In this document: piece after piece, positions 21,737 through 34,840 of the stretch
How the letters are laid out: every line of letters starts with the position of its first letter
Numbering within the stretch: the stretch's first letter is position 1
Source: Solemya velum
Lineage: Eukaryota
DNA length: 64,000 bases
Assembly: GCA_048127485.1 (NCBI GenBank)
Contig: JBHNWI010000380.1
Span: 43,436,036-43,500,035 of the forward strand
Direction: 5' to 3'
Translations under genes and position numbers: made by a program
Notes under the pieces: model-generated
What the model was told of the DNA's origin: nothing
Database searches by the model: none
What the model saw: only the letters and a program-made list of their open reading frames with translations

Positions 21737-24700
21737 TTGCCAAGTCGACTAGTATGTTGTACGTGTGGATGGGTTAGGCAGATATACTTTCTACAATAGG
21801 AAAATTATCCGCAAGCCTTCATTCCTGTATTTTCAACCGAGGCAAAGCTGACGATGGCTTGAAATTGCAACATCGGCAAAGATATACGAGTCAGTCCTAA
21901 CACAGCAGCCAGTACTGACACACTAGCCAGTCCTGACACACCAGTCAGTCCTCACACAACAGTCAGTCCTGACACACCAGCCAGTCCTGACACGCCAGTC
22001 AGTCCTGACACACCAGCCAGTCCTGGCACACCAGTCAGTCCTGACACACCAGCCAGTCTTGACACACCAGCCAGTCCTGACACACCAGCCAGTCCTGACA
22101 CACCAGCCAGTCCTGACATACTAGTCAGCCTTGACACAACAGCCAGACCTGACACACCAGCCAGTCCTGACATACTAGTCAGCCTTGACACAACAGCCAG
22201 CCCTGACACACCAGCCAGTCATGACACACCAGTCAGTCCTGACACGTCAGTCAGTCCTGACACACCAGCCAGTCCTGGCACACCAGTCAGTCCTGACACA
22301 CCAGCCAGTCCTGACACACCAGTCAGTCTTGACACACCAGCCAGTCCTGACATACTAGTCAGCCTTGACACAACAGCCAGACCTGACACACCAGCCAGTC
22401 CTGACATACTAGTCAGCCTTGACACAACAGCCAGCCCTGACACACCAGCCAGTCATGACACACCAGTCAGTCCTGACACGTCAGTCAGTCCTGACACACC
22501 AGCCAGTCCTGGCACACCAGTCAGTCCTGACACACCAGCCAGTCCTGACACACCAGCCAGTCCTGACACACCAGTCAGCCTTGACACACCAGCCAGTCCT
22601 GACATACTAGTCAGCCTTGACACAACAGCCAGACCTGACACACCAGCCAGTCCTGACATACTAGTCAGCCTTGACACAACAGCCAGCCCTGACACACCAG
22701 CCAGTCATGACACACCAGTCAGTCCTGACACTTCAGTCAGTCCTGACACACCAGCCAGTCCTGGCACACCAGTCAGTCCTGACACACCAGCCAGTCCTGA
22801 CACACCAGTCAGTCTTGACACACCAGCCAGTCCTGACACACCAGCCAGTCTTGACATACTAGTCAGCCTTGACACACCAGCGAGTCCTGACACATCAGCC
22901 AATTCTGACACACCAGTCAGTCCTGACACACTAGCCAGTCCTGACACACCAATCAGTCCTGACAAACCAGCCAGCCCTGACACACCAGTCAGCCCTGACA
23001 CACCAGTCAGTCCTGACACACCAGCCAGTCCTGGCACACCAGCCAGTCCTGACACACCAGCCATTCCTGACACACTAGCCAGTCCTGACACACCAATCAG
23101 TCCTGACAAACCAGCCAGCCCTGACACACCAGTCAGCCCTGACACACCAGTCAGCCCTGACACACCAGCCAGCCCTGACACACCAGCCAGTCCTGACACA
23201 CCAGTCAGTCCTGACAAACCAGCCAGCCTTGACACACCAGCCAGTCCTGACACATCAGCCAATTCTGACACACCCGTCAGTCCTGACACACTAGCCAGTC
23301 ATGACACACCAATCAGTCTTGACAAACCAGCCAGCCCTGACACACCAGTCAGCCCTGACACACCAGTCAGTCCTGACACACCAGCCATTCCTGACACACC
23401 GGTCAGTCCTGACACACTAACCAGTCCTGACACACCAGCCATTCCTGACACACCAGCCAGTCCTGACACACCAGCCAGTACTGACACACCAGCCAGTCCT
23501 GACAAACCAGCCAGTCCTGACACACCAGTCATTCCTAACACACCAGCCATTCCTGACACACCAGTCATTCCTGACAAACCAGCCAGCCCTGACACACCAG
23601 TCAGTCCTGACACACCAGCCATTCCTGACACACCAGCCAGCCCTGACACACCAGCCAGTCCTGACACACCAGCCATTCCTGACACACCAGTCAGTCCTGA
23701 CACACCAGTCAGTCCTGACAAACCAGCCAGCCCTGACACACCAGCCAGCCCTGACACACCAGCCAGCCCTGACACACCAGCCATTCCTGACACACAAGTT
23801 TGCCAAGTCGACTAGTATGTTGTACGTGTGGATGGGTTAGGCAGATATACTTTCTACAATAGGAAAATTATCCGCAAGCCTTCATTCCTGTATATTCAAC
23901 CGAGGCAAAGCTGACGATGGCTTGAAATTGCAACATCGGCAAAGATATACGAGTCAGTCCTAACACAGCAGCCAGTACTGACACACTAGCCAGTCCTGAC
24001 ACACCAGTCAGTCATCACACAACAGTCAGTACTGACACACCAGTCAGTCTTGACACACCAGCCAGTCCTGACACACCAGCCAGCCCTGACACACCAGCCA
24101 GCCCTGACACACCAGCCAGTCCTGACACACCAGTCAGTCCTGACAAACCAGCCAGCCCTGACACACCAGTCAGTCCTGACACACCAGCCAGCCCTGACAC
24201 ACCAGCCAGTCCTGACACACCAGTCAGTCCTGACAAACCAGCCAGCCTTGACACACCAGCCAGTCCTGACACATCAGCCAATTCTGACACACCCGTCAGT
24301 CCTGACACACTAGCCAGTCATGACACACCAATCAGTCTTGACAAACCAGCCAGCCCTGACACACCAGTCAGCCCTGACACACCAGTCAGTCCTGACACAC
24401 CAGCCATTCCTGACACACCGGTCAGTCCTGACACACTAACCAGTCCTGACACACCAGCCATTCCTGACACACCAGCCAGTCCTGACACACCAGCCAGTAA
24501 TGACACACCAGCCAGTCCTGACAAACCAGCCAGTCCTGACACACCAGTCATTCCTAACACACCAGCCATTCCTGACACACCAGTCAGTCCTGACACACCA
24601 GTCATTCCTGACAAACCAGCCAGCCCTGACACACCAGTCAGTCCTGACACACCAGCCATTCCTGACACACCAGCCAGCCCTGACACACCAGCCAGTCCTG

Positions 24701-33700: not shown

Positions 33701-34840
33701 ACACACCAGTCAGTTCTGACACACTAGCCAGTCCTGGCACACCAGCCAAGTCAGTCATGACACACCAGTCAGTTCTGACACTAGCCAGTCCTGAAACACC
33801 AGTCAGTCCTGACAAACCAGCCAGCCCTGACACACCAGCCAGTCCTGACACACCAGTCAGTCCTGACACATCAGTGAGTCCTGACACACCACACAGTCCT
33901 GACACACCAGTCAATCCTGACACACCAGTCAGTCCTGACACACCAGTCAGTCCTGACACACCAGTCAGTCCTGACACACTAGCCAGTCCTGACACACCAC
34001 ACAGTCCTGACACACCTGCCAGTCCTGACACACTAGCCAGTCCTGACACACCAGCCAGTCTTGACACAACAGTCAGTCCTGACACACCAGCCGGTCCTGA
34101 CACACCAGCCAGTCCTGACACACCAGTCAGTCCTGACACACCAGCCAGTCCTGACACACTATTCAGTCCTGACACACCAGTCAGTCCTGACACACCAGCC
34201 AGTCCCGACACACCAGTCAGTCCGACACACCACACAGTCCTGACACACCAGCCAGTCCTGACACACTAGCCAGTCCTGACACACCAGCCAGTCATGACAC
34301 ACCAGTCAGTTCTGACACACCAGTCAGTCCTGACACACCAGTCAGTCCTGACACGCCAGTCAGTCCTGACACACCAGCCAGTCCTGAAACTCCAGCCAGT
34401 CCTGACACACCAGTCAGTCCTGACACACCAGTCAGTCCTGACACACCAGTCAGTCCTGACACGCCAGTCAGTCCTGACACACCAGCCAGTCCTGACACAC
34501 CAGCCAGTCCTGACACACCAGTCAGTCCTGACACACCAGTCAGTCCTGACACACCAGCCAGTCCTGACACGCCAGTCAGTCCTGACACACCAGTCAGTCC
34601 TGGCACACCAGCCAGTCCTGACACAGCAGTCAGTCCTGACACGCCAGTCAGTCCTGACACACCAGTGAGTCCTGACACGCCAGTCAGTCCTGACACGCCA
34701 GTCAGTCCTGACACACCAGCCAGTCCTGACACACTATTCAGTCCTGACACACCAGTCAGTCCTGACACACTAGCCAGTCCTGACACACCACACAGTCCTG
34801 ACACACCAGTCAGTCCTGACACACCAGTTAGTCTTGACAC
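21737..34840. repeat. ~13.1 kb minisatellite array of an 18-bp unit (consensus cctgacacaccagccagt, with variants gtcagt, aaacca and cattcct), organised into variable-length higher-order repeats of 595-2060 bp. The first three higher-order units (HORs) begin with a ~165-bp spacer, and later ones with a short derived boundary motif.
   Basis: The spacer (gtttgccaagtcgactagtatgttgtacgtgtggatgg…gatatacgagtcagtcctaacacag) occurs at 21737, 23797 and 24833. The boundary motif gccaagtcagtcatgacacacc occurs at ~25868, 27673, 28680, 29352, 30109, 30744, 31737, 32332, 33128 and 33747. The plus strand is strongly C/A-rich and G-poor. Confidence 0.9.

Follow-up and report, generated by a model that had tools for sequence, protein, structure and literature searches.

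A long tandem array of an 18-bp unit lies in intergenic DNA of Solemya velum, between a rhodopsin-type GPCR open reading frame and a PWWP2-like gene, within the window analysed here (the whole stretch of 64,000 nucleotides; Table 1). The array ends 1331 bp upstream of the PWWP2-like start codon, and its position among genes, with the GPCR open reading frame on one side and the PWWP2-like gene on the other, is a euchromatic one. The open reading frames flanking the array have no Pfam domain, and scans of 16-37 kb found no Rfam family or tRNA. An A-rich run (C9 A15 TT A12, 35119-35159) is located about 290 bp beyond the array, a tRNA-like B box (GGTTCGAGCCC) is present on the plus strand at approximately 20303-20313, and the window as a whole is rich in retroelements.

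Table 1. Features of the array and of its neighbourhood, in window positions.
Feature	Coordinates	Strand or start	Description
Rhodopsin-type GPCR ORF (7tm_1)	14735-15868	-	Pfam; upstream of array
Spacer copy 1	21733-21890		About 158 bp, non-repeat, AAGTTTGCCAAGTCGAC...ATATACGAG; immediately before first 18-bp units
Sub-array 1	21891-23795		About 105 units, all absolute frame 2; longest in-phase PDTPAS block
Spacer copy 2	23796-23953		Inside array
Sub-array 2	23954-24832		48 units scored, phase 1
Spacer copy 3	24833-24990		Inside array
Main array	24991-34840		Starts with repeat part of third segment, then ten more higher-order segments
Longest open stretch in array	30102-32945	+	948 codons
Longest minus-strand open stretch	31055-32269	-	405 codons; (GVSGLA/T)n, later TGWCVR phase
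PWWP2-like gene (KAL5017635.1)	36171-38662	ATG 36171	Three coding blocks, none reaching array

TRF describes a single array at 21892-34840 with period 18, 716.7 copies, 85% matches, and 1% indels, and its consensus, CAGTCCTGACACACCAGC, is a rotation of the unit given in the initial annotation. The 13-kb array of an 18-bp unit reported there is therefore real (about 717 copies), but its start had been set at 21737, and 21737-21891 is not repeat but the unique spacer of about 158 bp. The amplified unit, CCTGACACACCAGCCAGT, is loosely two 9-mers. Base composition of the plus strand over 21737-34840 is A.29, C.40, G.16, and T.15, with a GC skew of about -0.44; the low G content and strand asymmetry arise because the single amplified 18-mer has eight C and three G, and the earlier figure of about 15% G was essentially correct. 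Folding of both strands gave z-scores of +0.44 and -1.0, with no unusual single-strand DNA fold. The array is an undescribed yet ordinary minisatellite.

The three spacer copies are mutually 98-99% identical, and two of the three are found inside the array. The spacer has stops in all three plus frames, with at least two stop codons in each. Sub-array 1 has an internal periodicity of 234 bp (13 units), and its 104 units from 21896 to 23768 follow one another in a single phase without an indel. When the array is split at the spacers and at the +5 junctions, 13 higher-order segments of 597-2060 bp are obtained, in agreement with the 13 units of 595-2060 bp first proposed. The ten later segments of the main array start at 25876, 27679, 28689, 29360, 30115, 30750, 31743, 32340, 33134, and 33751, each bounded by a recurrent +5 junction, CCAGCCAAG-tcagt-CATGAC. 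Background identity from segment to segment is 88-93%, while recurrent types reach 98-99%: 27679 with 32340 (99%), 28689 with 30750 and 33134 (98-99%), and 24834 with 29360 (99% over 721 bp). The first two of these types had been recognized before, but the segment at 33751, then placed with the one at 27679, is only 94% identical to it. Near-exact duplications inside the array extend up to 724 bp.

The consensus leaves five of the six unit-relative frames open, and one plus-strand frame, referred to here as the PDTPAS frame, yields a Pro-, Thr-, and Ser-rich repeat peptide; both observations had been made in the initial annotation. Among the 684 units scored, PDTPVS (182), PDTPAS (140), PDKPAS (74), and PDTPAI (45) are the most common. 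The PDTPAS phase is divided almost equally over the three absolute frames (197, 231, and 256 units) in 26 runs, with approximately 25 switches of absolute frame across the array; the main array contains 23 phase changes, by way of +5, -2, and -1 junctions. Unit spacings other than 18 bp number 26, and 25 of these are 23, 34, 35, or 191 bp, none of which is a multiple of 3; the remaining spacing, of 36 bp, is one divergent unit skipped by the scan and involves no indel. The 25 frame-breaking spacings represent five indel types (+5, -2, -1, and +173 bp), and every type was copied as part of its higher-order block; the 1-2 bp indels noted earlier are present but are accompanied by larger ones.

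The PDTPAS frame is not uninterrupted through the array, and its longest pure block is 104 units. The open stretch at 21863-23812 (650 codons) is terminated by a stop in spacer copy 2. The longest open stretch, 30102-32945, exceeds the 730 codons previously reported, but it combines blocks in the PDTPAS phase with blocks in the LTHQPV phase, a mosaic that alternating +5 and -2 junctions keep free of stops; about 220 of its 948 codons read LTHQPV, making it not a pure Pro/Thr/Ser tract, and it has no Pfam match. Both the 104 single-phase units of sub-array 1 and the 948-codon stretch, open as it is via alternating +5 and -2, are translatable in principle, and both were counted against a non-coding reading.

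The array does not have coding-type constraint. No stop was observed in the PDTPAS frame over the 684 units, while position-shuffled substitutions give an expectation of 1.46 +/- 1.18 stops, with P(0)=.23. None of the consensus codons (CCT GAC ACA CCA GCC/GTC AGT) is one substitution from a stop, and this phase is therefore open without selection. Non-consensus frequencies at the three codon positions of this frame are.028/.156/.043; the first and third positions vary least, and variation does not peak at the wobble position. Synonymous changes make up.24/.20/.12 of the distinct variants, compared with.26 among all possible changes, and show no enrichment. Such selection tests are low-powered, because the unit variants are amplified copies and not independent events. 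It is the base composition of the unit that leaves such long frames open.

Database searches returned nothing specific to the array. Among 5.8 billion predicted proteins, none resembled any of its open frames, and the best protein matches of the PDTPAS frame were generic linkers with 53-61% identity over at most 25% of the query. Among 1.84 billion representatives, the minus-strand open reading frame had no S. velum match and only collagen-like ones; with a composite query of LTHQPV, TGWCVR, and GVSGLA, every match was a generic one, low-complexity or collagen-like, and S. velum was not among the sources. The neighbouring S. velum product KAL5017635.1 is present in the database of 5.8 billion proteins at 100% identity, and so is the annotation of this genome. 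Gene predictors usually mask tandem repeats, however, and for this reason the absence of a gene model is weak evidence only. Metagenome contigs scanned with a 36-mer and a 22-mer of the array gave 0 matches, and literature searches with the DNA motif and repeat-peptide strings gave only chance primer or peptide matches.

Taken from the sequence, these features indicate that the array is very probably an intergenic, non-coding, and neutral minisatellite of the S. velum genome; its anatomy, the behaviour of its frames, and the lack of coding-type constraint are matters of observation. Of the two readings offered in the initial annotation, a non-coding hypervariable VNTR or a real or decaying mucin-like exon, the non-coding side is supported, while the mucin-like headline is not, given about 25 frame switches and the spacer stops. 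The caveats attached to it against a coding interpretation (open frames from composition, frame shifts, and no ATG or splice context for a start) were apt. A mucin-like exon, whether still coding or recently decayed (for example 21863-23812 or 30102-32945), would encode a secreted, O-glycosylated, Pro/Thr/Ser-rich protein. The unit of 18 bp is six codons, the PDTP[AV]S frame has no stop in 684 units, open stretches run to 650 and 948 codons, and tandem-repeat genes are often overlooked in annotation. Such an exon is nevertheless very improbable: zero stops are expected by chance, every indel type is frame-breaking, and neither a wobble nor a synonymous excess accompanies the frame, which has no Pfam match or similar predicted protein. 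The sole in-phase ATG of spacer copy 1 (21854) meets a TGA two codons on, at 21860, and no GT-AG intron that would excise the spacer in frame was found by eye, the possible acceptors leaving 1, 5, or 14 nt ahead of the following unit and each leading to a stop; this search was visual, with GT and AG present in every unit. It is highly doubtful that one in-phase block (the first sub-array, 1.9 kb long, or the stretch of 948 codons) is transcribed and translated as a secreted PDTP[AV]S-repeat glycoprotein. If it were, the minisatellite would be giving rise to a mucin-like gene, or wearing one down, in a chemosymbiotic clam that depends on mucus-covered gills.

The opposite strand has a comparable likeness to collagen. 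One minus-strand frame, CTG GCT GGT GTG TCA GGA, reads (Gly-Val-Ser-Gly-Leu-Ala/Thr)n, the two loosely related 9-mers of the unit corresponding to two Gly-X-Y triplets; the open stretch 31055-32269 matches Pfam Collagen (PF01391) with E=7e-40, and there were 42,212 collagen-like library matches. The Pfam identity was rejected as a periodicity artefact. Both glycines are intact in only 543 of the 684 units, Gly being lost in 21%, and stops are found in 30 units, mostly through the CATGAC variant; G>S, G>R, G>stop, G>D, and G>E all occur among the common variants. Neither X nor Y is Pro in the consensus, the longest open stretch shifts to another phase within its length, the frame-breaking indels affect this strand equally, the synonymous share is not raised, and the best library identity is 54%, pointing to generic periodic matches. 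A collagen-like gene on the minus strand is accordingly the least credible of the alternatives, with almost no likelihood. The array might also have been carried in a mobile element (an SVA-like composite retroposon, a Helitron-type element, or similar) with copies at many genomic sites, as the A-rich run, the B box, and the retroelement-rich window might suggest. This is very unlikely, because no target-site duplication of at least 9 nt links the flanks of the array, including beside the A-rich run (35127-35159), BLAST of the flanks against each other found no terminal inverted repeats around it, no unit-like or flank-like copy was found by BLAST elsewhere in the 64-kb window, and the metagenome scans gave no motif match. 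An alternative of a different kind, unlikely but deserving more weight, is that the array is real while the assembly has partly misrepresented its length and block order, through collapse, expansion, or mis-joining of near-identical blocks. Blocks that are 98-99% identical over 600-800 bp, with duplications to 724 bp, are hard to order without spanning reads; the indel junctions and block variants are, however, internally consistent, and an artefact of this sort would touch only length and order, leaving the nature of the feature unchanged.

For a non-coding minisatellite, the probable history can be outlined. Replication slippage may first have amplified the 18-bp unit, after which unequal exchange and gene conversion would have copied blocks of tens of units, frame-breaking indels included; block-wise exchange or conversion of this type would account for the mosaic of 13 higher-order segments. 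The left flank, consisting of the 158-bp spacer, appears to have been tandemly duplicated twice together with adjoining units, which the same history of unequal exchange and gene conversion could explain. No protein product is proposed. If the array has an effect, it would act as DNA; one speculation is that, upstream of the PWWP2-like promoter, it influences spacing or chromatin.

The array also serves as a caution for the annotation of repeats. An 18-bp repeat with no codon one mutation from a stop shows kilobase-long open frames, and here one strand mimics a Pro/Thr/Ser mucin tract while the other mimics Gly-X-Y collagen, with 7e-40 as its Pfam E-value. Such arrays can be told from genuine repeat genes by tracking the phase, by indel arithmetic, and by the variation at each codon position. 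The array could be a length-polymorphic marker in S. velum; proof of expression would make it a case of satellite DNA giving rise to a repeat protein, although nothing found points in that direction.

Among known systems, SVA-type composite retroposons carry an internal VNTR, and the array resembles them in its variable tandem repeats and in the A-rich run beyond its end, but it lacks a target-site duplication, is not bracketed by recognisable SINE- or LTR-derived modules, and has no other copies seen within the 64-kb window. It resembles collagen (PF01391) in one minus-strand frame, where every third residue is Gly and the Pfam score is strong; unlike collagen, the array loses Gly in 21% of units, contains stops, lacks Pro in X/Y, and does not maintain the frame. 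Mucin PTS tandem-repeat exons, such as those with the 60-bp repeats of human MUC1 and the 69-bp repeats of MUC2, keep one frame throughout the array and lie between a signal-peptide exon and flanking domains. The array shares with them a unit that is a multiple of 3, a peptide (PDTPAS) with Pro/Thr/Ser at four of six positions, great length, and variant repeats, but its frame breaks about 25 times, its spacers contain stops, and no start, signal peptide, or flanking domain was found. Minisatellites have units of 10-100 bp and are euchromatic, and higher-order repeats result from the joint amplification of adjacent monomers, with unequal crossing-over and gene conversion (PMC5615363). The array is like a minisatellite or VNTR with higher-order repeats in its head-to-tail 18-bp unit of about 717 copies, its gene-flanked interstitial site, its mosaic blocks, the concerted spread of variants including indels, and the absence of coding constraint. 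It is unlike a typical minisatellite in that 13 kb is at the long end of the range and in having incorporated two additional copies of its unique flanking sequence.

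Tandem Repeats Finder returned a single array at 21892-34840 (period 18, 716.7 copies, 85% matches, 1% indels) with a consensus that is a rotation of the unit CCTGACACACCAGCCAGT, so the 18-bp tandem repeat described in the initial annotation is real. Its start was placed too early, at 21737, since 21733-21890 is a unique segment of about 158 bp and not repeat. This spacer recurs at ~23796 and ~24833 with 98-99% identity; the left flank and adjoining units have therefore been tandemly duplicated twice. Directly before the first copy, CCGCTCAGACCAGCACTGG at 21700-21735 resembles the repeat unit (CCCTGACACACCAGCC) in a loose alignment and may be a decayed proto-repeat that gave homology for the spacer duplication. 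Cutting the region at recurrent junctions gave 13 segments of 597-2060 bp, in agreement with the 13 higher-order units of 595-2060 bp first reported. Their mosaic arrangement is borne out by segment pairs at 98-99% identity, where any two segments have a background identity of 88-93%, and by near-exact duplications, the longest 724 bp, that lie 2-6 kb apart (chained exact 80-mers). The recurrent types proposed earlier hold for 27679 with 32340 and for 28689, 30750, and 33134, but 33751 is only a looser third member of the first group.

A fuzzy scan allowing 4 or fewer mismatches recovered 684 units of 78 distinct types. Plus-strand composition over 21737-34840 is A.29, C.40, G.16, and T.15, with a GC skew of about -0.44 and an AT skew of about +0.32, while the array flanks have 32-47% G+C without skew. 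The strand asymmetry exists because the amplified 18-mer has that base content (8 C, 5 A, 3 G, 2 T). In single-strand folding, neither array strand was better than shuffled controls.

The large ORF downstream of the array is 100% identical to KAL5017635.1 ("hypothetical protein ScPMuIL_007224 [Solemya velum]"), which has a PWWP domain (Pfam) and PWWP2A-like relatives in other molluscs. A protein from a Logan assembly (P0002) is 80% identical to this product and presumably comes from another solemyid. The PWWP2-like gene stays outside the array, with its ATG 1331 bp past the array's end. About 40 bp before this ATG, TGCGCATGCG at 36124-36133 resembles an NRF1-type promoter palindrome, and is a candidate site. 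On the upstream side, the GPCR ORF is the nearest likely gene. No Pfam-domain ORF, Rfam family, or tRNA lies in the 6 kb from there to the array or in the 1.3 kb beyond it. This places the array between genes, in gene-bearing DNA. Upstream, 262-11648 (-) holds apparent nested retroelements, with an LTR-type element that seems to be split by a non-LTR element, and the ORF at 60402-61019 (-) may be an exon of a further gene.

Features of the window and near-identical segment pairs (segments named by start coordinate)
Feature	Position	Strand	Remark
LTR-type element: integrase	262-915	-	
LTR-type element: RNase H	1254-1793	-	
Non-LTR element: endonuclease, RT, RNase H domains	2026-5919	-	seems to split LTR-type element
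Cys-rich ORF upstream of non-LTR element	6181-6726	-	
LTR-type element: protease-RT	7670-9703	-	
LTR-type element: zinc-knuckle gag	9730-10185	-	
LTR-type element: RRM-containing ORF	10776-11648	-	
AT-rich 5/20-bp repeat	12668-12731		
(CGGACGCC)5.6 repeat	13847-13891		
Rhodopsin-family 7TM (GPCR) ORF, single-exon-like	14735-15868	-	7tm_1 E=1.7e-16; Srw-type E=1.7e-15
PWWP2-like gene, three coding blocks	36171-~36320, ~36459-37798, 37973-38662	+	KAL5017635.1 mapping
205-codon ORF, acidic, Ser/Glu/Asp-rich at both ends	60402-61019	-	no Pfam match
(GGAT)35 microsatellite	63853-63994		runs to window end
Segment pair	27679~32340		99% over 793 bp
Segment pair	28689~33134		99%
Segment pair	30750~33134		99%
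Segment pair	28689~30750		98%
Segment pair	24834~29360		99% over 721 bp
Segment pair	27679~33751		94%

As to a mobile-element origin, no terminal inverted repeats were found around the array, its left flank and the A-rich run at 35127-35159 share no target-site duplication of 9 nt or more, and no other copies of the unit or flanks occur within the 64-kb window. At 35119-35159, some 290 bp beyond the array, C9 is followed by A15 TT A12, a tail that an old retroposon could have left. Before the array, a tRNA-like B box (GGTTCGAGCCC, ~20303-20313, +) lies in ~20230-20600, a Pfam-negative region of overlapping ORFs on both strands; ARAGORN found no tRNA there, and the region is possibly a tRNA-derived SINE.

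Five of six frames were initially reported open, and the consensus unit translations agree: PDTPAS and LTHQPV are open on the plus strand, as are LAGVSG, TGWCVR, and WLVCQD on the minus strand, and only the frame reading stop-HTSQS is closed, with TGA in every unit. That one in-phase block is expressed as a Pro/Thr/Ser-rich protein is nevertheless very improbable. The longest pure PDTPAS block has 104 units (21896-23768), and the longest open stretch, first given as 730 codons (30756-32948), measures 948 codons (30102-32945); alternating +5 and -2 junctions keep it open, and for about 220 codons it reads LTHQPV rather than Pro/Thr/Ser. Unit phase modulo 3 switches about 25 times along the array, and the PDTPAS phase is divided into near equal thirds (197 units in absolute frame 2, 231 in frame 1, 256 in frame 0). 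The 25 non-18-bp unit spacings are 23 (+5), 34 (-2), 35 (-1), or 191 bp (+173, the spacer), none a multiple of 3, and one further spacing of 36 bp is a divergent unit skipped by the scan. Frame shifts between units had been noted initially, but as 1-2 bp indels only, and +5 and +173 also occur. The frame-breaking spacings are five indel types, each copied along with its higher-order block, and are therefore genuine amplified features, not random sequencing errors. The spacer has at least two stops in each plus frame and, as previously observed, no ATG marks a start: the sole in-phase ATG before the first units (21854) meets TGA at 21860.

Non-consensus frequencies at codon positions 1/2/3 of the PDTPAS frame are.028/.156/.043, or.092/.199/.068 over distinct unit types; thus wobble positions are among the least variable. 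Replacements dominate the commonest variants (A>V in 292 units, T>K in 94, S>I in 82, P>L in 56 and 29, P>H in 23), S>S alone being silent (127 units). The synonymous share is.24,.20, and.12 for distinct variants seen in at least one, two, and five units, and.26 for all possible single changes. None of the 684 units has a stop in this frame, but no single substitution turns any of its codons (CCT, GAC, ACA, CCA, GCC/GTC, AGT) into a stop, and re-dealing the observed substitutions among positions of identical base gave 1.46 +/- 1.18 expected stops (P(0)=.23). The lack of stops is expectable by chance; composition explains why the frame is open. The PDTPAS frame is without coding-type constraint, in tests whose power is limited because the variants are amplified copies and not independent events.

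One minus frame reads (Gly-Val-Ser-Gly-Leu-Ala/Thr)n, a Gly-X-Y repeat (GVSGLA/T) that has wobble positions in common with PDTPAS, and 31055-32269 (-) matches Pfam Collagen at E=7e-40. A minus-strand collagen was rejected: both glycines are intact in just 543 of the 684 units, 30 units have a stop, mostly owing to the CATGAC variant, Gly is lost through common substitutions (G>S, G>R, G>stop, G>D, G>E), Pro is absent from X and Y, and the frame-breaking indels hit this frame too. In our view the Pfam match arises from periodicity alone; in automated annotation, the antisense of the 18-mer would readily give a false positive. Among 1.84 billion representative proteins, the minus-strand ORF had 42,212 collagen-like matches, none above 54% identity, and no product, in line with the other protein searches. 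The PDTPAS translation retrieved generic linker-like matches only (53-61% identical over at most 25% of the query), and a composite of LTHQPV, TGWCVR, and GVSGLA retrieved generic collagen-like proteins only (at most 54% identical). The S. velum annotation is in the searched database and gave no match, so none of the frames across the array has a deposited gene model, though this carries little weight, as tandem repeats are usually masked during annotation. The array motif had 0 matches in metagenome contigs, and its strings gave chance matches only in the literature.

Very probably, slippage expanded the 18-bp unit neutrally and multi-unit blocks were then exchanged unequally and converted, the mucin-like and collagen-like frames being by-products of unit composition and 9/18-bp periodicity. 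Minisatellites with higher-order repeats are euchromatic, have units of 10-100 bp, and contain blocks that derive from joint amplification and are homogenised by unequal crossing-over and gene conversion (PMC5615363). This previously undescribed array matches the definition and belongs to a very common class of sequences.
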